Of a stretch of 24,897 bases of DNA, positions 4,682 through 24,897 are shown piece after piece. The stretch spans positions 1 through 24,897 of the IMG/VR virus record IMGVR_UViG_2547132278_000021, one strand, 5' to 3'. This stretch comes from a virus (taxonomy: Duplodnaviria; Heunggongvirae; Uroviricota; Caudoviricetes). The notes under the pieces were generated by a model. The model was not told the origin of the DNA, ran no database searches, and saw only the letters and a list, made by a program, of their open reading frames with translations. A program made the position numbers and the translations under genes. Positions within the stretch are counted from its first letter, which is position 1. Every line of letters starts with the position of its first letter.

Positions 4682-4732
4682 CTTCTTTCTCCATTAGTGG
4701 GTCTGTTACGACCCACAGGTTAATAACAGGCG

Positions 4733-6431: not shown

Positions 6432-6728
6432 TCACTCCTGTTCACTGGCCTCTTTGGCCATCTTCAAATACTGTTCAGGGCAATGCGCCATAACGCGCTG
6501 AAACAGTTCCAGCGCCAGATTGCGTTGCCCCTCATTAAATGCCATTGCCATAGCATCCATCGGAGAGATAGCGGAAAACACCCGGCCTTTCTCCAGCACA
6601 GACCAGACAACGCGACGCCCCTGTTCACTGCTCATGACAAAGCGAATGTCATCAATTTCACGCTGTGCCATGTCACGTTGCTTACGGGCGTTTTCTTCTT
6701 TCAGTTGATCGTCCTCGTAATCTGTCAT
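6432..6728 (-). CDS. Hypothetical 98-aa protein between portal and scaffold
   Basis: ATG 6728-6726 overlaps the portal stop (ATGA coupling); charged helical protein. Confidence 0.55.
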   Translation of the reverse strand: MTDYEDDQLKEENARKQRDMAQREIDDIRFVMSSEQGRRVVWSVLEKGRVFSAISPMDAMAMAFNEGQRNLALELFQRVMAHCPEQYLKMAKEASEQE

Positions 6729-8404
6729 TGTGATTGCCCACCCTGACCACTAACTGCATTCGCCATAGCTGACAAAACACTCGGATCCGAAGTTTTAGCT
6801 TCGCTTAGCGTCTTGGCACCCTGTGCCGCCGCCATTCCCATCGCCATCATTTGTTGCTGCTGTTGCTGCTGTGCCCGTTGCTGGCGAGCCTGCTCAACCT
6901 GTTCCTGCGGAACAATGACGGTTGGAGACACTCCGGACATATCAGCGAATGCATCGATCGCCTGATCAACATTGAGTTTGTCGAGAGCTTCTGGTTTCGC
7001 TTGCGCAAGTTGACCAATGAAGTTGACCGTAGACGCCAGACTGGACAGGCCGATAGACTTCTGCGCCTGAGCCATGACGGAAATGTATTCGACCTTCAGG
7101 GGCATACCTTCCATCGCGTCAGGCGGTGGCGGCAGCATGTTTTTACGCACCATCATCGAGAAAGCGCGGTCAATGAGAGGATTAAGACATTCGTCGTTCA
7201 GACGCTCCAGAACCGGCCCCAACATCAGAAGTTTTTCTTCTTTCATTTCGATCACCGCTTCAACAGGCATCGAGCGGGTATTGATGTTCTGCAACATCAT
7301 GAACAGATCGACAAAGTAGGCGCTGTTAATGATTTGACGGGTGTCCTGAATGTCTGCCACCAAATCTGCTGTACTGGGGTTAACCAGATAAGCAGGCCTG
7401 AAACCATCCTGACCAGTAATCTGATCGATATACGTGATGTCGCCAGGAAGAAGGGAGGCACGCTGATTCTTGAGGGAAGTCGGAGCAACCATCGGCGGAT
7501 TGGTGGCTTTATCAATCAACTGCGACTTGCGCTTCTGGAGAAGCTGCAATGCCTTAACAGGTCCAAGCGCCAGCATACCCGGGCATGATGATCCATAAAC
7601 ATCTTCGCCGTTAACTTCCCAGCGCGGAGCCATAATTGGAAACTCATCGAATCCGGACTCGCGCAACAACTTGTCGTTATCGCCACCAACCTCGTAATAA
7701 ACCGATTTGAATGGCTTGTTCTTGCTATCCAGCTTCGATGTATCGCGGTCAATGTTCGGGTAAACCGAATGCATCACTTCAATCCACTTCTCGTAGGTGC
7801 CGCTTTCCCACATGCTTTTTACGGATTCGCTGACGTTATTTAGCCCGAACTCCTGAACAAGCTGACGAACAGTCATAGAGAACTTGCGAAAACAGGTGTC
7901 CACACTGCCACGAGGTGAGTTAGCCAGGTAGTAACTGCCTATCGGGAATGGCATTGTGCGAATGATGTCCTCGTCATCCTCCAGCACTGCCATTGCACCA
8001 GTGCTGTATGTGCCGAGGCTTCCGTATAACTGCGGCAGCGACTGATAGAGATTCGACTTATTGAACATATCGTTCATGCGGTTCTGCACCGCCTCAAGCC
8101 ACAACTTAACAGGGCCATAATCCATCATTTCAGGATCTGGCGTAGCCAGGCGAAACCACGGACGCGCGGGGCTTGTGATGCCTGACATCATGCCGCTGGC
8201 GAGAGTGCGCGCCGCCATAGTCCCGGTCGAATCAATAATGCGTGTATTGCGTCGATCGTTACGGTTGACCTCAGAAGTCAGAAAGCGGGAACCACGTGGG
8301 TTGATGTAATCACTCAACTCGCGCCAGTGCGGCTCGAACGACTGACGCTCGCTTTCAAGTTGTGCGAACTGTTTGTTCAATCGCTCTTTAGTTGTTTCCG
8401 CCAT
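6725..8404 (-). CDS. Portal (head-to-tail connector) protein, podovirus type (559 aa)
   Basis: Size, position after terminase, and a Gln-rich C-terminal tail (QQRAQQQQQQQMMAMGMAAAQGA...) reminiscent of T7-type connectors. Start context CCGGAGTCATTGAA-ATG. Confidence 0.75.
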   Translation of the reverse strand: MAETTKERLNKQFAQLESERQSFEPHWRELSDYINPRGSRFLTSEVNRNDRRNTRIIDSTGTMAARTLASGMMSGITSPARPWFRLATPDPEMMDYGPVKLWLEAVQNRMNDMFNKSNLYQSLPQLYGSLGTYSTGAMAVLEDDEDIIRTMPFPIGSYYLANSPRGSVDTCFRKFSMTVRQLVQEFGLNNVSESVKSMWESGTYEKWIEVMHSVYPNIDRDTSKLDSKNKPFKSVYYEVGGDNDKLLRESGFDEFPIMAPRWEVNGEDVYGSSCPGMLALGPVKALQLLQKRKSQLIDKATNPPMVAPTSLKNQRASLLPGDITYIDQITGQDGFRPAYLVNPSTADLVADIQDTRQIINSAYFVDLFMMLQNINTRSMPVEAVIEMKEEKLLMLGPVLERLNDECLNPLIDRAFSMMVRKNMLPPPPDAMEGMPLKVEYISVMAQAQKSIGLSSLASTVNFIGQLAQAKPEALDKLNVDQAIDAFADMSGVSPTVIVPQEQVEQARQQRAQQQQQQQMMAMGMAAAQGAKTLSEAKTSDPSVLSAMANAVSGQGGQSQ

Positions 8405-8418
8405 TTCAATGACTCCGG

Positions 8419-8625
8419 TTACTGACCAAGCAGCGTTTTACCGCTGGTATTAGCGGTTGATGTGTCGCCCTGAGAACCGGTAAGCAGCGTAGAACTACGA
8501 CCAGCAGCAGCGCGACGGCGACGAGTTTCTTCGTCGCGGGCATCAACAACGGCGGCATCCTGCTCCTGTGGTGCTGCCTGAACTTCTGGTGTTGCAGGCA
8601 CTGATGGTGAGCTACCCATGCACAT
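8419..8625 (-). CDS. Hypothetical 68-aa low-complexity protein upstream of portal
   Basis: ATG at 8625 is preceded by the same initiation block (GGAGTCATTGA-N-ATG) as the portal gene; Ser/Thr/Ala/Gln-rich. The overlapping 79-aa track ORF 8406..8645 starts on TTG and is less likely. Confidence 0.4.
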   Translation of the reverse strand: MCMGSSPSVPATPEVQAAPQEQDAAVVDARDEETRRRRAAAGRSSTLLTGSQGDTSTANTSGKTLLGQ

Positions 8626-8653
8626 ATCAATGACTCCGTACGCAATTAAATTA

Positions 8654-8730
8654 TTACCAATTTAACCACATATGATTTATTTATCGTAGATAGTTGACAT
8701 TTAACGCACAAATTATTACCTTTCAGGTAA
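8654..8730. promoter_or_regulatory. Operator-like site TTACC-TTTCA-GGTAA (8716-8730) with consensus -35 TTGACA (8694-8699) and a degenerate upstream half-site (8654-8668) at the cassette spacing
   Basis: Perfect 15-bp dyad identical in form to the immunity-region operators. Flank AAATTATTACC matches the flank of the pL-like proximal operator. Transcription direction not resolved. Confidence 0.45.
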
Positions 8731-9052
8731 GCAAAGAGTTCATTCCGGTTATTAACCTGACTGGCTTGTCGTTAAATTGAACAGGTGGAGTGAGCTTTTA
8801 TTTTGAGCAGTACGGCGTATGGCACATGCGCCGATAGCGGTCTGGATACGTTTAAGGGGCACCCTCCCTTGCTCGGGCAAACGAACCAGGTAGCCGGAAT
8901 GTGCAAGTCGAGCGGTTTTATTCCGCGCACGGGGATTCACCATCCCGGCGATTTGGTGTGACGCCTCGGAAGAGACGAGGGTACAACGATGAGAGCATTT
9001 ATGGAGCCGCGACAAAGTGTGGCGCCTTAACAGGCTAAGTGCTCTCAGCGTT

Positions 9053-9129
9053 GTGGCATTAGCTCAGTTGGACAGAGCAACCGCCTTCTAAGCGGTTGGT
9101 CGCAGGTTCGAATCCTGCATGCCACGCCA
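9053..9129 (+). tRNA. tRNA-Arg (anticodon TCT, decodes AGA)
   Basis: 77-nt cloverleaf folded by hand: acceptor GTGGCAT/ATGCCAC, D stem GCTC/GAGC, anticodon stem ACCGC/GCGGT with loop CTTCTAA (U33, TCT, A37), T arm GCAGG-TTCGAAT-CCTGC, discriminator G, encoded CCA. Confidence 0.9.
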
Positions 9130-9172
9130 GAATCACGCCTAAGGACCGTGATGCCAGAAGTTCCAGGTGCTT

Positions 9173-9214
9173 GGCGGTGATGGTTTCCCTTGAAGGACTA
9201 TCACCGCCCTTTTT
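9173..9214 (+). terminator. Intrinsic terminator downstream of the tRNA
   Basis: 9-bp stem GGCGGTGAT / ATCACCGCC followed by CTTTTT. Confidence 0.5.
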
Positions 9215-9292
9215 ACAGCAGGACGCCATTGCGATGACTTCATGCTGTAAACCCGTACAGCCACGGAAGGCATAACTCATTGCTTCCAGTTC

Positions 9293-9316
9293 GCCCGGTT
9301 CGCCGGGCATTTTTTT
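9293..9316 (+). terminator. Intrinsic terminator-like hairpin immediately upstream of the Gp49-like gene
   Basis: GCCCGG-TTCG-CCGGGC stem-loop followed by A + TTTTTTT. Confidence 0.5.
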
Positions 9317-9327
9317 AAGGTGAGATT

Positions 9328-9653
9328 ATGAACGACCAGCAAATCGAAAAAGAAATCGTTGAGAAAGGCAAAACCGCTCCGCGAGTTACGCCTCAATATA
9401 TCGAAAGCATCATTCTTGAAGAGCATTTCTTTACTGCTTAGACGGCATTCGTGCTGCCAATATGGGCGTTGGCGATTCATGGACAGCGCATAAATCTACA
9501 GACCTCCTGACTTTCTGCGTATTGGTACTGAAGAATGGCTTCACCGTCACCGGAGAGAGTGCCTGTGCAAGTCCGGAAAATTTTGATGCAGAAATTGGTC
9601 GGAAGATTGCCCGGCAGAATGCTGTAAACAAAATCTGGATGCTTGAAGGTTAA
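9328..9653 (+). pseudogene. Gp49-like small phage protein gene (Phage_gp49_66-type) disrupted by a frameshift
   Basis: ATG 9328 with AGGTGAG Shine-Dalgarno encodes MNDQQIEKEIVEKGKTAPRVTPQYIESIILEEHFFTA then TAG at 9439-9441. The adjacent frame continues from 9441 (DGIRAANMGVGDSW...LKNGFTVTGESACASPENFDAEIGRKIARQNAVNKIWMLEG) to TAA 9651-9653; the two frames join with a 2-nt offset. Confidence 0.5.
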
Positions 9654-9686
9654 TTGCTGAAGCAGAAGTTAAGCGAGCAATAACAC

Positions 9687-9700
9687 CGTGACATGTCACA
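9687..9700. repeat. 14-bp element CGTGACATGTCACA (perfect 12-bp palindrome GTGACATGTCAC), copy 1, downstream of terL
   Basis: Identical 14-mer recurs at 11952-11965. Confidence 0.8.
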
Positions 9701-9703
9701 AAC

Positions 9704-9730
9704 AGCCAGCCGATGAGCTGGCTTTGTTTT
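9704..9730 (+). terminator. Intrinsic terminator (possibly bidirectional) between the Gp49-like gene and the terL 3' end
   Basis: Stem AGCCAGC / GCTGGCT with loop CGATGA, followed by TTGTTTT; A-rich on the other side. Confidence 0.55.
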
Positions 9731-9773
9731 ATCCTCACCAGAGGATATCTCCGTCATTATCCCCGCTAACGGA

Positions 9774-11249
9774 TTAAGCATAGGGATCGTAATCTGTAAT
9801 GGCCTTGCCTTGCTGGTTCTGCTGCCCGGGAATTCGCAGGCGCTTTGACACCGGGAAAGCAAACGTCAGCAGTAGCGCATCGCCTTTACCAGGCGAACGC
9901 CCAAGTCGTTCTTTGATATCTTCCTTCGGTTCGATAACGATTTTACCGTCCACGCGAACTTTGTACTCTGCCGCCGACAGGTCGTCTGCAGTTTCCTGGT
10001 CATCCAGCATGCCGCCTAGCCTCAGCCATGTCTTGCATGAGTTGAACATCTCCCCACGCTTGTTGAGCATCTGCGGGTCAGTAGACGCGCCACCGAACGG
10101 AACAAGTTGCCATGTACGACCCCAGCCGTCACCGATTGACTTCAAACCGGTTCCGTAACCGAAGTCGATGAACACCGCGTCAGCCTGATACTGGTCTTCA
10201 AAGTCAGCGATACGCTTCGCCATAATCAGATCGTCGGTAGTCTTGTTGCCAGTCCACAGCACCTTACTGTGCAGCCCCTGCCGCAGGTATATCACAGCGT
10301 CATCAACGCCTGAGTATGCCGGGTCAACGCCGATTATCACCGGAGCATGTGCAACCTGCGCAGCGGTTACCACCCGTTTCATTGCCTCATCAGTAAGACC
10401 GGTAGGGATAAACTGCAATTCAGATGCATCAGGGAATATGCCGCGCACACGGACCTTCACGAAGTCGCTGTCCTCGCCATGGTCTTCAATCCATTTTTGA
10501 ATCTGCTCTTTGTTCGTTCCTTCGACGGTACGGCTGTCGATCTGCTTCGTAACCCAGCGGTGTTTATATTTGCGGAAGCATTCCCTGAAACGCCCGGAGT
10601 TACGCGTAGGGTTTCCGAACGCTACCCAGATGATTTCCGTGTCTTCGTCCGTCAGCGCACCCTCGGCCACCTCCCAAACTTTATCAGCAATGTTTGACGC
10701 CTCATCGAATACCACGATGATCCGCTTACGCTCGTTGTGCAGGCCGGCGAACGCCTCGGTGTTGTGCTCAGACCACGGGATTGCGTCAGCGCGCCAGCGT
10801 TTATCGTGGCCCGGATCATTGCTGTACATGGCTGTTGCTGGGGTAGAGAACCAGTCTTTCGTGATGGACAGGTTTGCCCACTTAATCACTTCAGGCCATG
10901 TCTTGGTACGCAGCTGATTTTCGGTGTTGGCAGTGACTACTGCTTTGCAGTCTTCGCAGGTTGACATACCCCAGTTCAGGAGCATGGAAATACCCGCACT
11001 TTTCCCTATGCCGTGGCCTGAAGAAACGGCAATCATCAGCGGCTGATGACGGGTTTCTGGGTTCCTGAGGTGCTCACCAACCGTATCGAGCATCCATCTT
11101 TGCCAGTTTCTTGGTCCGGATGCATGCGCCAGCTCTGTACCCTCTTCCCCCCACGGGAACGCATAGAGGGCATAGCCAAGCGGATCGTGAGTGAACCCTG
11201 CTATATCCTCGATCAACTGCTCTTCAGGAGATAACGATGTATCTGTCAC
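9774..11249 (-). CDS. terL: Terminase large subunit (491 aa)
   Basis: N-terminus SPEEQLIEDIAGFTHDPLGYALYAFPWGE..., a Walker-A-like GHGIGKSAG and an acidic VVFDEASNI stretch, then a nuclease-sized C-terminal domain. GTG start at 11249 overlaps the terS stop (GTGA). Confidence 0.85.
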   Translation of the reverse strand: MTDTSLSPEEQLIEDIAGFTHDPLGYALYAFPWGEEGTELAHASGPRNWQRWMLDTVGEHLRNPETRHQPLMIAVSSGHGIGKSAGISMLLNWGMSTCEDCKAVVTANTENQLRTKTWPEVIKWANLSITKDWFSTPATAMYSNDPGHDKRWRADAIPWSEHNTEAFAGLHNERKRIIVVFDEASNIADKVWEVAEGALTDEDTEIIWVAFGNPTRNSGRFRECFRKYKHRWVTKQIDSRTVEGTNKEQIQKWIEDHGEDSDFVKVRVRGIFPDASELQFIPTGLTDEAMKRVVTAAQVAHAPVIIGVDPAYSGVDDAVIYLRQGLHSKVLWTGNKTTDDLIMAKRIADFEDQYQADAVFIDFGYGTGLKSIGDGWGRTWQLVPFGGASTDPQMLNKRGEMFNSCKTWLRLGGMLDDQETADDLSAAEYKVRVDGKIVIEPKEDIKERLGRSPGKGDALLLTFAFPVSKRLRIPGQQNQQGKAITDYDPYA

Positions 11250-11839
11250 TGATTACCATCCTGACGTTCTTTGAGTCGCTTCCTGGCTGCTGCTATGCGA
11301 TCAGCAATTGTCACATTCACATTAACATCCAGACGTTCTTTGAACGCGTTGACATCAACATGCTTACCAATCAGCTCAAGGTTCTTCACCTTGTCAGGCC
11401 ATTTAATTTTTTTGAGGATTGTCTCTATCGAATCCTCGTTCATGTTCATGATGGTCGATGACAGATCAAAGCCACTAAGCGTAGTGCGCCAGATTTTCGG
11501 CCACTCACGGATTGGTTTAAGGCTCCCATCGTCGTTGAGGATGTCGATCACGTCCATCTGGTCGATCTCCACCAGGCGCATGAGAACGTAATCAGCACTG
11601 ACGCGCATTCGTTTGTTGCGCTCCTCCATCAACTCGGCAATCCGTTTTTGAATGCGTTCATCGCGCATCATGACACTGGCTTTAACTGCCGCTGTATTTG
11701 GAGAGAATCCTGCGTTAATCGCTGCCTGAGTCTGGTTTTCAGGCGTTTTGATGTATGACTGGCAATAAGCCTCCTGCATTGCTGTTAGTGGCTTAAATTG
11801 CGTTGATTTGCGTTTATAGGTTTTAGGTTCAGCAGGCAT
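11246..11839 (-). CDS. terS: Terminase small subunit (Terminase_2-like), ~197 aa from the internal ATG
   Basis: Region LTAMQEAYCQSYIKTPENQTQAAINAGFSPNTAAVKASVMMRDERIQKRI has the Terminase_2 HTH pattern. Track start 11920 would place a terminator hairpin inside the coding sequence; ATG 11839 is preceded by GGTGG. Confidence 0.75.
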   Translation of the reverse strand: MPAEPKTYKRKSTQFKPLTAMQEAYCQSYIKTPENQTQAAINAGFSPNTAAVKASVMMRDERIQKRIAELMEERNKRMRVSADYVLMRLVEIDQMDVIDILNDDGSLKPIREWPKIWRTTLSGFDLSSTIMNMNEDSIETILKKIKWPDKVKNLELIGKHVDVNAFKERLDVNVNVTIADRIAAARKRLKERQDGNQ

Positions 11840-11884
11840 CATAACCACCGTGGTAATAGTTACCGTTGTGGTAATAGTACCATG

Positions 11885-15597: not shown

Positions 15598-15674
15598 TTA
15601 CCTCTAAGGTAATTAAAAACCACATAAGACACGAAATCAATAGATCTAAGAATATTTTGTTACCTATCAGGTAA
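15598..15674 (-). promoter_or_regulatory. Internal promoter-operator cassette: operators TTACC-TCTAA-GGTAA (15598-15612) and GTTACC-TATCA-GGTAAC (15659-15675) flanking -10 TTTAAT (15612-15617) and -35 TTGATT (15635-15640)
   Basis: Two perfect dyads 62 bp apart centre to centre, the same spacing and layout as the pL-like cassette; 17-bp spacer between the hexamers. Confidence 0.6.
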
Positions 15675-15711: not shown

Positions 15712-16512
15712 TTACTTGATAAATCCTGCCGCCTTTCCCCGCCTGTATTCCTCCATCAGCCACTGCGCCGGTGTTATTCCCCCAAGGGTGGCGGCGTTAG
15801 GCATGCACCCGAAACTTCGCCCTGGTGGATGGTAAACGTCTCTCCCTGTGTCCGGAGGTGTACTCATGGGCTCTGGCTTTGCCTGTATGCTGATCACCGG
15901 ATCGGGTATCTGCTGTCCGGAAGCCACCTTTTTCGCCCAATCATCGAGCAGCCTGCGCGCGTGTTTCTCAACCTCAATCTCGCTAAGCTGGCGCTGATAC
16001 ATTGCACGGCGGGTATCACATACGACCCAGTACATAACCGGATGTCGCCACGGGAATCTTTCGGGACCACCAGGATATAAACTTTTTTCCTTGCTGTACC
16101 GGTGAAACTCCGCCATCACATCGTCAATGGTGACGCCAAGAACCATCTTGCTGTCTTTGCACCACTTGATAAATTGCCCTGGCGACGGCCAGAACGGAGA
16201 TTCACTGGCGCGGGCGTGGCGCATACCAGCAGAAACCTGTTCACGGGTTCGGATCCCCCCTTCGGCAAACGCAGCAATCCACTGCTGTTTTGCAGCAACT
16301 TCCTGCTCTGGCGTCTTCAGGTTGGTTACCACTGCCGCCGGAAACAGTTGTTTCAACTGTTTGAAAAGGGCATCAACAAGCCTCTCTGCTGACATGTTCA
16401 CCACATTGTCATTGTTGACGTACTGATGCTCATAACCTGACATGCGAGAAAGGGCTTCTCCGTCACGGTTTTGTATCGCGGTAAAAACGTTGTTCACAAG
16501 AAATCCTCCCAC
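15712..16512 (-). CDS. Lambda P-like replication protein (helicase loader), 266 aa; start codon uncertain
   Basis: QWIAAFAEGGIRTREQVSAGMRHARASESPFWPSPGQFIKWCK parallels the lambda P core (QWVLAFRENGITTMEQVNAGMRVARRQNRPFLPSPGQFVAWCR, recalled from memory). Track start is a GTG overlapping the O-like gene 3' end. Confidence 0.8.
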   Translation of the reverse strand: MGGFLVNNVFTAIQNRDGEALSRMSGYEHQYVNNDNVVNMSAERLVDALFKQLKQLFPAAVVTNLKTPEQEVAAKQQWIAAFAEGGIRTREQVSAGMRHARASESPFWPSPGQFIKWCKDSKMVLGVTIDDVMAEFHRYSKEKSLYPGGPERFPWRHPVMYWVVCDTRRAMYQRQLSEIEVEKHARRLLDDWAKKVASGQQIPDPVISIQAKPEPMSTPPDTGRDVYHPPGRSFGCMPNAATLGGITPAQWLMEEYRRGKAAGFIK

Positions 16513-17357
16513 GCTTCAGGGCTGTTCCAGTGCGGAACGTTGTTATCAGGTAATGTTGATTGCTTCTGTCTGCTAATCTGCAGCCGCCTTGCCAGCTTCT
16601 GCTCCCACTGTGCCTGATGGTATGCCTTACCCTCAGCCATCCAGTAAATTCTGAACTCTGCAAGTTCCTGTGCCGTTGGCAGACTGTCCAGGTAGATTCC
16701 CTGCAATGAGCTTTTCCGAAGAAAGTCATCTGATGGCTGCCATTGTTCATGCATGACAAATTTGCCTAATTGCCCTGGCCCACCAGGAGGAACAAAGTTA
16801 TTCATCACGGCGTTGTTTGCGCCGGGGTCATGAGGCACAGAATCCCCGGTTTTTGTCCTGCTCTCCCTCTCTTGGTTAAATGACTGGTTATATGACTGGT
16901 TCTGGATCCCGTTTTTGGGATCATTCAACATCCCGTTTTTGGGATCATTCAACATCCCGTTTTTGGGATCATTCAACATCCCGTTTTTGGGATCATTCAA
17001 CATCCCGTTTTTGGGTATATTCCCGTTTTCGGGAACATTACCGTTTTCGGGTTCATTACCCCCTTCCCGGTTGCCTTTAATGTTCCCTTTTTTGGTTATA
17101 TTAAGAGAGAAAACCCGTACTCTTTTCGTCGCCCCCTTTCTCTCTCCGGTATCTGAAATAAGCCCCATTTTCATGAGCGATATAAGCCCGGCCTGCACGG
17201 TTTTTTTATTCAGGCAAGTGTCTTTAACGAGGCGTTCTATGCTGGGGTAGCAGAGGTTATATTCATCGGCTCTGTCAGCCATCGAGAGCAGTATGAGCTT
17301 TAATGACGAGCTACCTGGATCTGTCTCCCAGGCCCAATCTGTTGCATGTCTGCTCAT
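16494..17357 (-). CDS. Lambda O-like replication initiator (287 aa) with internal origin repeats
   Basis: N-terminal winged-helix-like region (LKLILLSMADRADEYNLCYPSIERLVKDTCLNKKTVQAGLISL), central PKNGMLND repeats encoded by the iterons, and a C-terminal domain. GGAGA Shine-Dalgarno before ATG 17357. Confidence 0.8.
   Translation of the reverse strand: MSRHATDWAWETDPGSSSLKLILLSMADRADEYNLCYPSIERLVKDTCLNKKTVQAGLISLMKMGLISDTGERKGATKRVRVFSLNITKKGNIKGNREGGNEPENGNVPENGNIPKNGMLNDPKNGMLNDPKNGMLNDPKNGMLNDPKNGIQNQSYNQSFNQERESRTKTGDSVPHDPGANNAVMNNFVPPGGPGQLGKFVMHEQWQPSDDFLRKSSLQGIYLDSLPTAQELAEFRIYWMAEGKAYHQAQWEQKLARRLQISRQKQSTLPDNNVPHWNSPEAWEDFL
16906..17001. repeat. Candidate replication origin iterons: four perfect 24-bp direct repeats (ATCCCGTTTTTGGGATCATTCAAC), with degenerate copies to ~17060
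   Basis: Seen directly in sequence. Each unit carries an ATCCC...GGGAT dyad. Location inside the initiator gene mirrors lambda ori. Confidence 0.75.
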
Positions 17358-17652: not shown

Positions 17653-17667
17653 GTTACCTTTGAGGTA
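17653..17667. promoter_or_regulatory. Imperfect operator TTACC-TTTGA-GGTAC directly after the cro-distal terminator
   Basis: One mismatch from the TTACC-N5-GGTAA dyad. Confidence 0.4.
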
Positions 17668-17678
17668 CGAATAGATAT

Positions 17679-17723: not shown

Positions 17724-17954
17724 TCATGAGTAGAAGAAGTATGCCAGTTCTGCTTTTGAGCGCAGCCATTGTCTTGTTTTACAGGCTTTAAAAAGCCCAT
17801 TCATCAATACCTTACCTGGCATTTTGCGCTTACCTGTTAAGTGAGTCTGGATATAGTGACTCGTCGTTCCGGCTTCCTGTGCGAAGGCTTCACGCTCATC
17901 CGGAGTAAGTGCAAGCCAGTGCTTTTTGAAATCGAAATGTCCGTTATCGCTCAT
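17724..17954 (-). CDS. Cro/CII-like HTH regulator (76 aa), first gene of the early-right operon
   Basis: Divergent from the repressor gene. Helix-turn-helix-like stretch EAFAQEAGTTSHYIQTHLTGKRKMP; FDF...AFAQ resembles CII-type regulators of 186-like phages (from memory). Confidence 0.55.
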   Translation of the reverse strand: MSDNGHFDFKKHWLALTPDEREAFAQEAGTTSHYIQTHLTGKRKMPGKVLMNGLFKACKTRQWLRSKAELAYFFYS

Positions 17955-17990
17955 AGCTATTGCCTGATATTTATTTCAGATAATAAATAT

Positions 17991-18053
17991 TCACCCATAA
18001 GGTAACAAAAATCAAGGATAGTTACCTATGAGGTGCATTTACCTGTTGGGTAA
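17991..18053. promoter_or_regulatory. Immunity-region operator cluster (OR-like): TCACC-CATAA-GGTAA (17991-18005), TTACC-TATGA-GGTGC (18022-18036), TTACC-TGTTG-GGTAA (18039-18053)
   Basis: Three dyads in the 154-bp divergent intergenic region between the cro-like and repressor genes. Candidate cro promoter hexamers TTGTTA/TATTAT overlap the first site. Confidence 0.65.
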
Positions 18054-18108
18054 TATTGCTTTAAATTGAATCATCTACTGATTCATATATGAGGCGATTT
18101 TCCAGAAA

Positions 18109-18693
18109 ATGAAAAGTATCCAGGACGTCCGCAGGCAAAATCTCAACGACTTGATCGACCGTGAATTCAATGGTGTTCAGACGCGGATGGCAGAAAAACT
18201 TGGAACTCAGGCAAATCTGGTAAACCGCTGGGCTCTTGGCAAGAAGGTTATCGGCGACCAGGTTGCGCGAAAAATTGAAGCTGCCGCCAATAAACCACGT
18301 AACTGGCTTGATATCGATCGCTCGCTTTCTCAAGAAGGTTTTCAGCCTGTCGGCCCGAGTGATATAGGTCAGCTGGCTGCTCACAACCTGGAACGCTGGA
18401 TGAGCGAAAGCCGCGACCTTTCAACGCAGGGAAAACTACACCGCGCATCCGGCGTCGCCCAGGTGACAATCAGCCGCCTGTTAAACAATGAGGTCAGCGT
18501 TTCCATTTCCACCCTGGAGAATGTTGCATCCGCATTCGGGCGTCATGGCTATGAATTACTGATTCACCCGCACGACCCTGCGACTATCAACTATGACCGC
18601 TCGCGCTACGCATTGTTACCCGAAACCGAGAAAGCAAAGATCGAAAGTTACATTGAATTTGTCATCAACCAGAACGAAAAAAGCAAACAATAA
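18109..18693 (+). CDS. Phage immunity repressor candidate: tandem double-HTH (XRE-type) protein with no LexA/S24-like cleavage domain (194 aa)
   Basis: Two HTH-like segments (TRMAEKLGTQANLVNRWALGKK and LHRASGVAQVTISRLLNNEV); divergent from the early-right operon; followed by a strong terminator. Confidence 0.65.
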   Translation: MKSIQDVRRQNLNDLIDREFNGVQTRMAEKLGTQANLVNRWALGKKVIGDQVARKIEAAANKPRNWLDIDRSLSQEGFQPVGPSDIGQLAAHNLERWMSESRDLSTQGKLHRASGVAQVTISRLLNNEVSVSISTLENVASAFGRHGYELLIHPHDPATINYDRSRYALLPETEKAKIESYIEFVINQNEKSKQ

Positions 18694-18713
18694 AACTATA
18701 GTTTTCAGCAAGT

Positions 18714-18739
18714 AAGCCGCCTCATGGCGGCTTTTTTAT
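18714..18739 (+). terminator. Intrinsic terminator after the repressor gene
   Basis: GCCGCC-TCAT-GGCGGC followed by TTTTTT. Confidence 0.7.
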
Positions 18740-18750
18740 TGCCGAAAAGA

Positions 18751-18827
18751 TTACCTTGCAGGTAATTTTTTTAACTCATATCTATTGACATCAAACCAGA
18801 TACGCATAATTATTACCCCAACGGTAA
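18751..18827 (+). promoter_or_regulatory. pL-like promoter-operator cassette: operators TTACC-TTGCA-GGTAA (18751-18765) and TTACC-CCAAC-GGTAA (18813-18827) flanking -35 TTGACA (18785-18790) and -10 AATTAT (18808-18813)
   Basis: Consensus -35, 17-bp spacer; the proximal operator begins at the last base of the -10; operator centres 62 bp apart. Confidence 0.65.
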
Positions 18828-19008: not shown

Positions 19009-20039
19009 GTGAATTATCAATCATCGAAATCACACCAGACATGGCACCAAGAATTTACGTTGAAAAAGGGCTGGAAAAGTTTCTCGAGCAGATCCGTGAA
19101 GGTGTTAATGAAGTGCCTGACATTAGCACAGACAAAGGCAGAAAGCGCATTGCATCTCTGGCTGCGAAGGTTTCAAGAAGTAAAACAGCGGTAGAAAAAC
19201 CAGGACGTGATTATCTTAAACGCCTGAAAGAACAGCCGAAAGTAGTTGAAGCAGAGTTACGACGCTTCGTAACCGAATGCGATCGGCTTCGTGATGAAGT
19301 ACGCCGCCCACTCACCGAGTGGGAAAATGCTGAGAAATTACGCACTGAAGCACTGCAACAACGCCTGACAAATTTGCGAGCACTAGCTGACGTGATCGAT
19401 CTCTCCGGAAACTACTTGCCATCATCTGACATTCAGGAACGAATTCAAGAGGCTAAATCAGTAGCACTTGATGAAAGTTGGCAGGAGTACGCAGCAGAAG
19501 CTGGAGTAGCCAAGGATTCAACCATCCAGAAACTGGAAGAATCACTCGCAGTAGCTCAAAAACGCGAGCATGAAGCCGCTGAGCTGGAGCGACTTCGCAA
19601 AGAAGCGGAGGAAAAAGCGCGCATTGAGCGAGAAGAGAATATCCGCCGGGAAGCTGCTGAACAGGCCAGGCTCGAAGCTGAACAAAAAGCGAAAGCTGAA
19701 ATTGAGGCTGCGGCACGCCTGGCGGCGGAAGAAAAAGCACGTGCTGAAGTAGCAGAACGTCAGCGAATTGAAGCAGAGCAGCGTGCACGACGCCAAAAAG
19801 AAGAAGCCGTTGCCGAGGAACGCCGACGCCAAGAGGCGGCAGAAAAAGCCCGCCTTGACGAACAGAAGCGTATCGCCGACGAAGAAGCGCGCCGAGCTGC
19901 AGATAAAGAGCATCGCCGTACCGTTAACCGCAGAGTAATCGCAGATCTGATAGCCCAAGGCATACCCGAAGAATTCGCGCAGAAAGCAATGTTGGCTATC
20001 GCTGGCGGCAAAGTGCAGGACGCGTATATCAAATATTGA
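19005..20039 (+). CDS. Hypothetical coiled-coil protein (344 aa) of the early/recombination operon
   Basis: Strong GGAGGAGG Shine-Dalgarno; ~110-aa N-terminal domain, long E/A/R/K-rich heptad region, short C-terminal domain. Confidence 0.6.
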   Translation: MSELSIIEITPDMAPRIYVEKGLEKFLEQIREGVNEVPDISTDKGRKRIASLAAKVSRSKTAVEKPGRDYLKRLKEQPKVVEAELRRFVTECDRLRDEVRRPLTEWENAEKLRTEALQQRLTNLRALADVIDLSGNYLPSSDIQERIQEAKSVALDESWQEYAAEAGVAKDSTIQKLEESLAVAQKREHEAAELERLRKEAEEKARIEREENIRREAAEQARLEAEQKAKAEIEAAARLAAEEKARAEVAERQRIEAEQRARRQKEEAVAEERRRQEAAEKARLDEQKRIADEEARRAADKEHRRTVNRRVIADLIAQGIPEEFAQKAMLAIAGGKVQDAYIKY

Positions 20040-20346: not shown

Positions 20347-21164
20347 AACCGGGAATTTATTTCGACATCAGCAACGAAGACTACCACGCCGGTGACGGCG
20401 TGAGTAAGTCGCAACTGGACATGGTTGCCAAGAATCCGGCGCTTCTTAAATGGGTTCAGGCAGCACCAGAAGACGAAGAGAAAAAGTCTGCACTGGATAT
20501 GGGAACCGCATTGCACTGTCTGCTTCTGGAGCCTGGAGAATTCGACAAACGCTTCATTGTTTCACCGAAGTTCGATCGTCGGACGAAACAAGGTAAAGCT
20601 GACGAAGAAGCATTTCTTCGTGATGTAGCGGATATGGGGATTACGGTACTTGATGCCGAGCAGTGGCGGAAACTGGAGCTGATGCGTGATAGCGCAATGG
20701 CTCACCCGGCGGCACGCTGGATGCTGGAAGCACCTGGTTACTGCGAAGCATCAATGTACTGGAATGATGAAGAGACTGGTGAGTTGTGCCGCATTCGTCC
20801 AGACAAATGGCTGAACGAGCACAACGTGATCGTCGACGTGAAAAAGGTTGCAGATATGGACCGTTTTGCACGCCACATCGAGGAATTCCGCTACCACGTG
20901 CAGGACGCAATGTACCGCGAAGGCGCAATGAGGGTTACTGGTCAGCCGCATGGTTTTTTCTTTCTTGCCGTGAGCGAAAGCATTGATTGTGGTCGGTATC
21001 CGGTACGCGTGTTCGAGCTGGATGCGCAGGATGTCGATGCCGGGCACGCTCTGTTCCGCCGGGATCTGAATACCTATCACGAATGCCGCATCAATGATGA
21101 ATGGGGCGGTGTGGAAATCATTAAACGCCCTGAGTGGGCACGCAAACAGGATATGTACATATGA
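20343..21164 (+). CDS. RecE-like exonuclease (exonuclease VIII C-terminal-domain type, PD-(D/E)XK), 273 aa
   Basis: N-terminus MKPGIYFDISNEDYHAGDGVSKSQL and nuclease motifs ...RIRPDKW...IVDVKKV; immediately upstream of and coupled to recT. Confidence 0.65.
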   Translation: MKPGIYFDISNEDYHAGDGVSKSQLDMVAKNPALLKWVQAAPEDEEKKSALDMGTALHCLLLEPGEFDKRFIVSPKFDRRTKQGKADEEAFLRDVADMGITVLDAEQWRKLELMRDSAMAHPAARWMLEAPGYCEASMYWNDEETGELCRIRPDKWLNEHNVIVDVKKVADMDRFARHIEEFRYHVQDAMYREGAMRVTGQPHGFFFLAVSESIDCGRYPVRVFELDAQDVDAGHALFRRDLNTYHECRINDEWGGVEIIKRPEWARKQDMYI

Positions 21165-23646: not shown

Positions 23647-24897
23647 TTATTCCCCCGCCATCCATTTCTCAAACTTCGACGGGGAGAACGGAATCAGATC
23701 CGTATGCTCCCCGTCAATCCAAGAATCAATCATATCGGCCCACTGCTGCAACATGTAGGCGCGCTGTCTGGCGTATTCCGCTTTGTTATATACGGCGCGC
23801 ACACCTTTCTGCTCATGTGCCAGAGCCTTTTCAATCCAGTCTGAAGGATAACCAGCCTCATGCAACAACGTACTGGCTGTACGGCGCATATCGTGTACGG
23901 TGAAGTCCTGAATATGCTCACCATCTTCATTTATTATTTTCACCGTTCTGTCGATCAGAGAGTTCAGTGCGGCATTAGATAATGGCTTCCTGAAATTGTA
24001 ACGACCAGGAACCAGGTATTCACTTCCACCAGCGCACATCTGCAACCCGACCAATATATCCTGTGCCTGTTTAGGCAGGTAAATAACGTGCGCCCGACTT
24101 CCCTTCATGCGGTCTGAAGGAATTGTCCATGTCCATTTTTTAAAATCTATTTCATCCCACGTTGCATTGGTGAATTCGCCTTTACGAACCATAGTGATAA
24201 GCACCAGCTTTAAAGCCATTTTCATAGTGCCCATAGCACCAATGGCATCCAGCATGCGGAAGAACAGGCCAATTTCTTCTGGTGTCAGTGTTCGCTCTCG
24301 TGGTTTAAATATGGCGATAGACGAAGGTTTAATGTCAGCCGCAGGATTAAACAAACCATGACCACGGTCATTGGCGTGACGGTATACGCTGCTGATGATC
24401 TCCCTGGCCTGCACTGCTGTTGCCCGGCCACCGCGTTCGACAATCCGGTCACACAAATCACGAACCATCGATGTGGTAATTTCAGCCATCATTTTGTTGC
24501 CAAGAACCGGAAGTATGTCACGGTCGATCACCGCCTGCTTCATTGCGCGGGTACTGTCAGCCAGGATGACGTGTTTCATATAACTGTCGGTATGTACCGC
24601 AAACGTCTCGGCACCACGAATCTTTTTGATACCGTCACGTTTAGCCGCAGCCGGTGATTGGCCTGCTTTAAGCAGCTTTTTTGCAGCAATCAGTTCTTCT
24701 CGCGCTTCTGCCAGGCTGATACCGTCACGCCCATACTGCCCGATTACCAGTGTTTCGCGGCGACCGTTGATACGGTAGTCATAGCGAAACGAGACCGTGC
24801 CTGACGTAAGCACAGCTACATACAGCCCGTCACGATCGGAAACTTTGTACAGTTTGTCCTGTGGCTTGAGGTTCTTTAATTTTGTATCGGTAAGCAC
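23647..24897 (-). CDS. int: Tyrosine integrase (P4-type), 416 aa; start codon at the window edge
   Basis: N-terminus MLTDTKLKNLKPQDKLYKVSDRDGLYVAVLTSG is a classic phage integrase arm-binding domain; C-terminal ...HDMRRTASTLLHEAG...AHEQKGVRAVYNKAEY holds catalytic H/R/Y. The first codon (24895-24897) is GTG; att is expected just beyond the window. Confidence 0.85.
   Translation of the reverse strand: MLTDTKLKNLKPQDKLYKVSDRDGLYVAVLTSGTVSFRYDYRINGRRETLVIGQYGRDGISLAEAREELIAAKKLLKAGQSPAAAKRDGIKKIRGAETFAVHTDSYMKHVILADSTRAMKQAVIDRDILPVLGNKMMAEITTSMVRDLCDRIVERGGRATAVQAREIISSVYRHANDRGHGLFNPAADIKPSSIAIFKPRERTLTPEEIGLFFRMLDAIGAMGTMKMALKLVLITMVRKGEFTNATWDEIDFKKWTWTIPSDRMKGSRAHVIYLPKQAQDILVGLQMCAGGSEYLVPGRYNFRKPLSNAALNSLIDRTVKIINEDGEHIQDFTVHDMRRTASTLLHEAGYPSDWIEKALAHEQKGVRAVYNKAEYARQRAYMLQQWADMIDSWIDGEHTDLIPFSPSKFEKWMAGE

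Follow-up and report, generated by a model that had tools for sequence, protein, structure and literature searches.

The TTACC-N5-GGTAA dyad of a phiV10/epsilon15-type podophage as the probable operator of its lysogeny repressor Rep

The Rep-Ant lysogeny switch of Salmonella phages SPC32H and SPN1S was reportedly worked out by Kim and Ryu (J Virol, 2013) and by Kim et al. (PNAS, 2016). Here we analyse positions 1 to 24,897 of the virus record IMGVR_UViG_2547132278_000021 (the window, meaning this whole 24,897-bp stretch), whose sequence identifies it as some 25 kb from a temperate podophage of the phiV10/epsilon15 kind (genus Uetakevirus). A dyad, TTACC-N5-GGTAA, recurs between the genes of this phage. 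We consider it probable, at roughly 85%, that the dyad, in its fuller form (A)TTACC-N5-GGTAA(T), is the operator of the lysogeny repressor Rep, a 194-residue protein encoded at 18109-18693 on the plus strand.

Three domains make up the repressor of SPC32H: the one at the N-terminus binds DNA, the middle one mediates dimerisation, and the C-terminal one, which has a p53-like "TetDloop" fold, mediates tetramerisation and binding of the antirepressor Ant (PMC9986798). This p53/Rco fold is tied to DNA looping in pLS20 Rco, and the structural mechanism of repression by Rep "has not been extensively characterized" (PMC9986798). A second report (PMC9638917) describes SPC32H Rep on palindromic sites as a tetramer in which the paired DNA-binding domains on one palindrome come from different dimers, and a tetrameric antirepressor that dismantles the Rep complex. 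In ZX5, overexpression of ORF21, whose sequence is given as the same as that of phiV10 ORF40, abolished free phage and lowered endolysin and holin transcripts by ~99.97-99.99%; the protein acts as a lysogeny repressor, and the paper defines no operators for it (PMC9782041). Sites of this kind are marked in the epsilon15 record (AY150271.2), which carries seven protein_bind features labelled "repressor / lysogeny", every one of them ATTACC-N5-GGTAAT. They lie before terS, at the gp3/opposite-strand cassette, between ant and the tailspike gene, at the early-left promoter (PL; three features) and before the first nin-region gene, and they are the homologues of the window sites at 11860, 8716, 18751/18813 and 15660. 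The motif is therefore not new. The epsilon15 record leaves unmarked its own sites in the right operator region (OR; 33341 and 33358), its proximal nin site (35969) and a site at 24704, and it does not annotate the paired 62-bp cassette described below as such. Operator annotations are absent from the records of phiV10, phiv142-3, Tyrion, BUCT554, 65FD and SPC32H, and an operator sequence was stated in no paper found by a full-text search on these phages, a search that did not reach the original SPC32H and epsilon15 papers.

Seven perfect copies of the dyad are present in the window, as compared with 0.01 expected from dinucleotide-preserving shuffles, none of which reached seven. Allowing one mismatch raises the count to 10 (0.43 expected) and allowing two raises it to 24 (6.3 expected). 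Since so many matches are expected by chance, the two-mismatch class is mostly noise, and the match at 17830 inside cro was treated as such, together with the other two-mismatch matches within genes. The two-mismatch site at 18022 was accepted because its counterpart is perfect in epsilon15-type phages. In an unbiased count of all palindromes of the form 5-N(0-10)-5, TTACC with a gap of five ranks first; the runner-up, TACCT with a gap of three, represents the same sites read one base inward, and the next two are the iterons of the replication origin. All 11 accepted sites fall within non-coding DNA, which makes up 12.2% of the window in a hand-curated gene map that takes the terS start as ATG 11839, as in Tyrion and epsilon15, and not as the upstream TTG of the long open reading frame (ORF). 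When checked against the annotated coding-sequence tables, every perfect copy in phiV10 and in epsilon15 is intergenic; the lone apparent exception, phiV10 site 87, lies within an over-long terS annotation. A chance origin of the repeated dyad is excluded.

The first-pass annotation of this DNA had listed nine copies, all said to be intergenic. Every listed site is real, the intergenic placement extends to all 11, and the six perfect sites (8716, 15598, 15660, 18039, 18751 and 18813) were located correctly, as was the mismatch status of 17991-18005 (one) and 18022-18036 (two). The site placed at 17653-17667 actually occupies 17654-17668 (TTACCTTTGAGGTAC, one mismatch), and two copies upstream of terS had been overlooked, a perfect one at 11860-11874 and a one-mismatch copy at 11842-11856. 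The same annotation had proposed a motif search in related phages. Eight relatives were searched (phiV10, phiv142-3, Tyrion, BUCT554, epsilon15, SPC32H, 65FD and Klebsiella phage Kp4865-1, giving nine sequences with the window), and each of the eight genomes contains 8-11 perfect copies. The 83 perfect sites share the consensus A-TTACC-(T)nWn(A)-GGTAA-T, with A or T at the central base in 95%. The spacings between sites are conserved as well. Paired sites lie 62 bp apart at PL and at the nin-region promoter in all nine sequences, with the sole exception of 63 bp at PL of Kp4865-1; the terS pair is spaced by 18 bp in seven of nine, and the OR sites by 17 and 30/31 bp.

The pairing is most regular at PL. 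The upstream boundary of this cassette is an intrinsic terminator after rep (18714-18733, plus strand), which consists of an 8-bp stem with six GC pairs followed by a T run and is annotated as a terminator in phiV10. It is followed by a perfect distal left operator (18751-18765, TTACCTTGCAGGTAA), whose centre lies at about -62 from the predicted PL start, and then by 19 bp, TTGACA, 17 bp and AATTAT. Completing the cassette is a perfect proximal left operator (18813-18827, TTACCCCAACGGTAA) with its centre at the predicted start; this operator begins with the T that ends the -10 element. The PL-like promoter itself (18785-18813, plus strand) has 10 of 12 matches, the best in a promoter scan. An identical layout is found on the minus strand (15674-15598) at a predicted internal nin-region promoter, where a perfect distal operator (15660-15674) precedes TTGATT (15640-15635), 17 bp and TTTAAT (15617-15612), followed by a perfect proximal operator (15598-15612). 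This promoter sequence (15612-15640, minus strand) is kept in nine genomes, and the right half of the proximal operator (GAGGTAA on the minus strand) also provides the DUF1064 gene (15594-15250, minus strand) with its ribosome-binding site. The shared layout had been described in the first pass. The -35, the 17-bp spacer, the -10 that shares its last T and the 62 bp between centres are exact at both loci (18751-18827, plus; 15674-15598, minus), but the gap from the distal operator to the -35 is 19 bp and not 20, as 15 + 19 + 6 + 17 + 6 minus the one-base overlap gives 62. This distance corresponds to 5.9 helical turns. When the 18 PL and nin cassettes of the nine sequences are aligned, TATTGA at the -35 is invariant, and the 29 invariant columns comprise the four half-sites, TATTGA, the AT that precedes the proximal operator and two isolated positions in spacers, with all other columns variable. 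The alignment gives a clean footprint, in the phylogenetic sense, of a promoter bracketed by two protein-binding sites. No paper was found that describes a strictly conserved 62-bp operator-promoter-operator cassette.

Three further sites lie between rep and the divergent cro-like gene (17724-17954, minus strand, 76 residues). The one nearest rep (18039-18053) is perfect. The middle one (18022-18036, TTACCTATGAGGTGC), 17 bp from it, has two mismatches in the window and is perfect in epsilon15, SPC32H, 65FD and Kp4865-1. The third, nearest cro (17991-18005, one mismatch, TCACC), falls within the core of the rightward promoter. This PR-like early-right promoter (17980-18015, minus strand) is assigned to TTGATT (18015-18010) and GAATAT (17992-17987), and the promoter scan offers TTGTTA/TATTAT (18008-17980) as an alternative; the sequence cTTGATTTTT at the -35 is kept in nine of nine sequences. 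On the other side of OR, a search by consensus for a canonical, PRM-like promoter of rep returned only a weak candidate, TTTACC/18 bp/TAAATT on the plus strand. The left half of the 18039 operator overlaps it, and this overlap recurs in both clades, epsilon15 included. Lambda-like autoregulation of rep through this site is speculation from the overlap. An imperfect operator (17654-17668, one mismatch, GTACC on the minus strand) lies just past the cro terminator (17702-17683). Located 17 bp downstream of it is a conserved promoter-like sequence, TTGATC/17 bp/CAAAAT, that is a candidate driver of the replication genes, and the imperfect site is kept in phiV10, Tyrion and phiv142-3.

Two operators precede the late gene terS. 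The perfect one (11860-11874), homologous to the epsilon15 site 12-27 labelled "repressor", has its centre where transcription from a late promoter is predicted to begin. The extended -10 of this promoter, TGGTACTAT (11874-11882, minus strand), directly follows a terminator (11911-11894) and contributes its last T as the first base of the operator. Eight of the nine sequences have TGnTAnTAT in this register, the exception being phiv142-3 with TGGTGCTAT, and BUCT554 and Kp4865-1 retain the pattern despite unrelated upstream DNA. At a distance of 18 bp is the second operator (11842-11856, one mismatch), which directly adjoins the ribosome-binding site and start codon (ATG 11839) of terS. From these features we infer a late promoter directly under Rep, and no paper was found that describes an extended -10 late promoter controlled in this way. 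The predicted regulon is thus wider than first proposed, because the late terS promoter also carries sites. A single perfect operator (8716-8730), the homologue of the epsilon15 site 2931-2947 labelled "repressor", is positioned between gp3 (8625-8419, minus strand) and a tRNA cassette on the opposite strand. A candidate promoter, TTGACA/17 bp/TACCTT (8694-8722, plus strand, opposite to the late genes), has its -10 inside the left half of this operator, and TTGAC is found at a fixed distance from the operator in nine of nine sequences, with a spacer that varies. It points at a 329-nt leader, the tRNA-Arg(UCU) gene and a strong terminator (9173-9208). What had been called a tRNA island is this single tRNA (9053-9129, plus strand; ARAGORN and Rfam).

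How well does the product of 18109-18693 fit these sites? It is 99% identical to phiV10 p40, and its residues 1-190 align with SPC32H Rep (PDB 5D50, E 3.5e-42; structure homologues 5D50 and 5D4Z). Pfam assigns HTH_3 at 106-147 and a weak Cro/YdaS-like helix-turn-helix (HTH) at 21-61; only HTH families are recognised and an S24 peptidase domain is absent, while the C-terminal region matches the MDD/CAD domains of Rep in the alignment. The resulting domain plan is an N-terminal HTH for DNA binding, a middle HTH-like dimerisation domain and a C-terminal domain for tetramerisation and Ant binding. Overall identity is 43% between Reps of the phiV10 and epsilon15 clades, and also 43% between the window and SPC32H, and the N-terminal helix NLVNRW is invariant across seven Reps. 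Such an invariant helix fits the invariant half-site. By all features examined, the sequence places the window system in the SPC32H/epsilon15 Rep-Ant family. The proposal of the first pass, that a single regulator encoded at 18109-18693 controls the early promoters on both sides, the nin promoter and possibly the tRNA, is supported by this homology, by the repressor activity of the identical ZX5 protein, by the epsilon15 annotation and by sites and spacings that stay conserved where their flanks diverge.

The spacer of the dyad differs between the clades. Its guanine-cytosine (GC) fraction over 5 bp is 0.33-0.40 in phages with a phiV10-type Rep versus 0.04-0.15 in the epsilon15-type phages and the Klebsiella phage, with a genome GC of about 0.5 throughout, and the full 17-bp form ATTACC...GGTAAT is commoner at epsilon15-type sites. 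Because the clades share half-sites and differ in the spacer, specificity could possibly reside in indirect readout of the spacer or in Rep-Ant pairing instead of in the half-site. Spacer composition may thus be a determinant of immunity specificity, and no paper was found that describes this difference between Rep clades.

The ant region lies outside the window. In phiV10, the small Ant (p24; 20543-20800) is 88% identical to that of SPC32H (19676-19936), and a LexA box, CTGT-N8-ACAG, is located upstream of the Ant homologue in phiV10 and phiv142-3, the closest complete relatives of the window. The two Ant proteins are thus 88% identical while the Reps that they target are 43% identical. This hints at either an Ant-binding surface conserved on Rep or cross-induction between the clades. 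By analogy, induction is expected to be unlike that of lambda, with a Rep that has no S24 peptidase domain and is inactivated by an antirepressor.

Several observations weigh against Rep as the reader of the dyad, or against parts of that assignment. The epsilon15 record does not say whether its protein_bind annotation is predicted or experimental. Conservation is higher in the Cro-like protein than in Rep, and the former travels with the module in distant phages; sequence alone cannot separate Rep from Cro as ligand; both may bind. The promoter assignments are consensus matches only, and the promoter scan gives 11 promoter-like sites as compared with 15.4 in shuffled sequence. The proposed -10 at 8717-8722 (TACCTT) is non-canonical, and no -35 is recognisable at the terS promoter. 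As to DNA looping, 62 bp would make a tight loop, and the OR and terS spacings of 17-18 bp are non-integral helical turns.

One alternative is that the dyad serves chiefly the Cro-like protein (17724-17954) or another early regulator, with Rep recognising something different. At 76-100% identity across the genus, above that of Rep, the Cro-like protein matches the invariance of the half-sites. In lambda, CI and Cro share operators, a precedent that makes Cro binding plausible here in addition to Rep, and the Cro-like protein is by that analogy a possible second ligand of the same operators. Distant phages bear on both proteins. A tblastn search with the N-terminal 73 residues of Rep found homologues in Pseudomonas phage PseuP_224, Psychrobacter phage pOW20-A and Moraxella phage Mcat9 at 36-40% identity. 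Related dyads flank the repressor gene on both sides in PseuP_224 (TTACC-N4-GGTAA at 2422, 2461, 3298 and 3323) and in pOW20-A (TACCT-N3-AGGTA at 2380, 2414, 2430, 3287 and 3312), and Mcat9 has a single upstream site with one mismatch, TTACCTAAAAGATAA. Because dyads adjoin these repressor genes, the DNA-binding domain and a TACC-type operator can be said to travel together across unrelated phages, with the induction-sensing C-terminus swapped. Cro homologues stand beside the related repressors in pOW20-A and Mcat9, both of which have TACC-type dyads, so that co-occurrence in distant phages does not separate Rep from Cro. PseuP_224, however, has the dyad and no detectable Cro homologue. Moreover, the epsilon15 record assigns the sites to the repressor, Rep is divergent except for its conserved N-terminal domain, and the sites lie at PL, nin and terS, where a lysogeny repressor must act. 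The window also offers Rep no other enriched dyad, since the remaining top dyads are origin iterons. The Cro-like protein is therefore more likely to be an additional ligand than the main one, and an assignment of the dyad mainly to Cro or to another early regulator seems to us improbable.

A second alternative, marginally weaker still and in our judgement quite unlikely, is that the terminator-operator-promoter cassettes serve mainly as recombination linkers at mosaic boundaries and that the dyad is a passenger. The gene that follows the nin cassette does vary between relatives (DUF1064 or RuvC-like) while the cassette is constant, and the megablast match to epsilon15 ends exactly at window position 8730, which is the end of an operator. 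However, only the half-sites and the -35 are invariant within the cassettes and the rest diverges, a pattern that points to selection on protein-binding sites and not to recent recombinational homogenisation. The dyad also occurs alone, outside cassettes, at OR, terS and gp3, and a linker role would be compatible with operator function rather than an alternative to it. The reading of the dyads as RNA hairpins (processing or attenuation signals) can be ruled out with near certainty, for although each can form a 4-5 bp hairpin and some lie within predicted 5' leaders, the hairpins are weak (-1.1 to -3.5 kcal/mol), compensatory changes, which selection on structure alone would permit, are absent from the 83 perfect sites, the distal sites precede their promoters and would hence not be transcribed from them, and A or T at the central base in 95% of sites fits readout of DNA shape.

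How would Rep, bound at this dyad, silence the lytic genes? Two N-terminal HTH domains would each recognise one TTACC half-site, the centres of the half-sites being separated by 10 bp, or one helical turn. Bound Rep would then shut off every lytic unit, namely PL, PR, the replication promoter after the cro terminator, nin, terS and the tRNA-Arg promoter; the shut-off is proposed to be direct because the operators overlap core promoter elements. Transcription starts are predicted near 18820 (plus), about 17980 (minus), 15605 (minus), 11867 (minus) and 8729 (plus). Terminators precede most units of the right arm (after cro, before the nin promoter and before terS), as the rep terminator precedes PL, and for this reason the genome can be read as a chain of insulated units, each of which would be directly repressed by Rep. 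With operators also at internal promoters and at the late promoter, control looks direct rather than exerted through an N/Q antitermination cascade. At PL and nin, a single Rep tetramer might hold both of the operators spaced by 62 bp and loop out the promoter between them, which is conceivable because the DNA-binding pairs of SPC32H Rep come from different dimers. A small LexA-controlled antirepressor, encoded outside the window, would inactivate Rep, a step shown only for SPC32H. We hypothesize that the tetramer clamps the 62-bp pairs in a six-turn micro-loop, that a flat programme of Rep-repressed insulated units replaces a cascade, and that specificity is set through the spacer or through Rep-Ant pairing; this combined model is tentative, and we give it less than even odds.

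Other landmarks of the window are the portal protein gene (6725-8404), terL (9774-11249), terS (11246-11839), a lambda-P-like gene (15712-16512), a DnaT/O-like replication gene (16494-17357, minus strand), the early-left genes from 18847 and the integrase gene at the right end; the late genes are on the minus strand. The immunity region is 97-98% identical to those of phiv142-3, phiV10, ZX5 and TL-2011b and occurs in 561 of the 5,426 complete E. coli genomes examined. Within the O/DnaT-like gene, four head-to-tail 24-bp iterons (TGGGATCATTCAACATCCCGTTTT) span 16916-17007, and each holds a GGGAT-N8-ATCCC dyad; by analogy with lambda O, the array is probably where phage replication originates. 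Two short ORFs on the plus strand (9328-9441 and 9462-9653) are in different frames and look like a split gene of the N4 gp49/Sf6 gp66 family. That family is annotated at this locus for phiV10 p03 and for one BUCT554 gene, and the split could reflect a pseudogene or a sequencing frameshift.

Further features surround the gp3/tRNA locus. The non-coding leader of the tRNA (8731-9052, plus strand) folds better than shuffled sequence (z = -2.8); over 8600-9800, Rfam returned the tRNA only, whether the cutoff was the gathering threshold or an E of up to 1, with no match in the leader. In epsilon15, where the tRNA is missing, the corresponding region is annotated with an RNase III site. The phiv142-3 record places its tRNA-Arg(tct) (23999-24067) on the minus strand while the tRNA of the window is on the plus strand; the SPC32H tRNA is annotated on the strand opposite its late genes, and the strand given for phiv142-3 is probably wrong. 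A block of about 45 bp upstream of gp3 (8646-8690, read on the minus strand; CTACGATAAATAAATCATATGTGGTTAAATTGGTAATAATTTAAT) is nearly invariant in nine of nine sequences, the Klebsiella phage included, and its flanks diverge. It holds TGGTAATAAT, which resembles an extended -10, and a lone GGTAA half-site, and it may act as a promoter for the portal operon or be bound by a different regulator. The region upstream of gp3 was considered as another 62-bp cassette and rejected, as it has only the lone GGTAA half-site, at the +72 register, and no matching -35. Lastly, the tRNA cassette holds a LexA-box-like CTGT-N8-ACAG at 9245-9260, flanked by the two terminators that follow the tRNA. The phiv142-3 sequence shares this box, and phiV10 has a related CTGT-N8-ACAG in the equivalent position. 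The window contains two such boxes, the other at 4703 in an intergenic gap between capsid-region genes, and the significance of the 9245 box is doubtful because about 0.4 matches are expected per window by chance.

Phages of the phiV10 type modify the O157 antigen and serve as reporter and typing phages. A complete operator map shows which promoters must be freed for induction and would help in the engineering of such phages. The 77-bp cassette, with both operators and dyads 62 bp apart, provides a DNA substrate for the question of how a tetrameric, SPC32H-type Rep represses transcription. A repeated palindromic operator of a phage repressor is textbook knowledge, and the 62-bp cassette, the extended -10 late promoter and the spacer difference between clades are modest extensions of a known system.

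Among the closest known systems is that of SPC32H. Its Rep is homologous over all three domains and has no S24 domain, the phage belongs to the same genus and has the same gene order, and the same dyad occurs in the same places with the same 62, 17 and 30 bp spacings. The window differs from it in a degenerate middle OR site, in more GC-rich spacers (0.33-0.40 versus 0.12-0.15) and in the absence of a third PL operator (+76 bp). Lambda likewise places three operators between its divergently transcribed repressor and cro genes and more operators at PL, beyond the repressor gene, and its operators too overlap core promoters. In contrast to lambda, Rep of the window has no domain for RecA-stimulated autocleavage (S24), its operators are also found at internal and late promoters, and operator pairs are 62 bp apart and not adjacent. 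PseuP_224, pOW20-A and Mcat9 resemble the window in a homologous N-terminal DNA-binding domain and in TACC-type dyads near the repressor gene, but their repressors carry a LexA-like S24 peptidase C-terminus and their phage backbones are unrelated; PseuP_224 has a 4-bp spacer, and in pOW20-A the half-site is shifted to TACCT-N3-AGGTA. The looping repressors pLS20 Rco, LacI and GalR are comparable in that paired operators on approximately the same helix face bracket a promoter, and the kinship with Rco extends to the TetDloop fold reported for the C-terminal domain of SPC32H Rep (PMC9986798). As modelled, a Rep loop of 62 bp would be far shorter than the loops of lac and gal.

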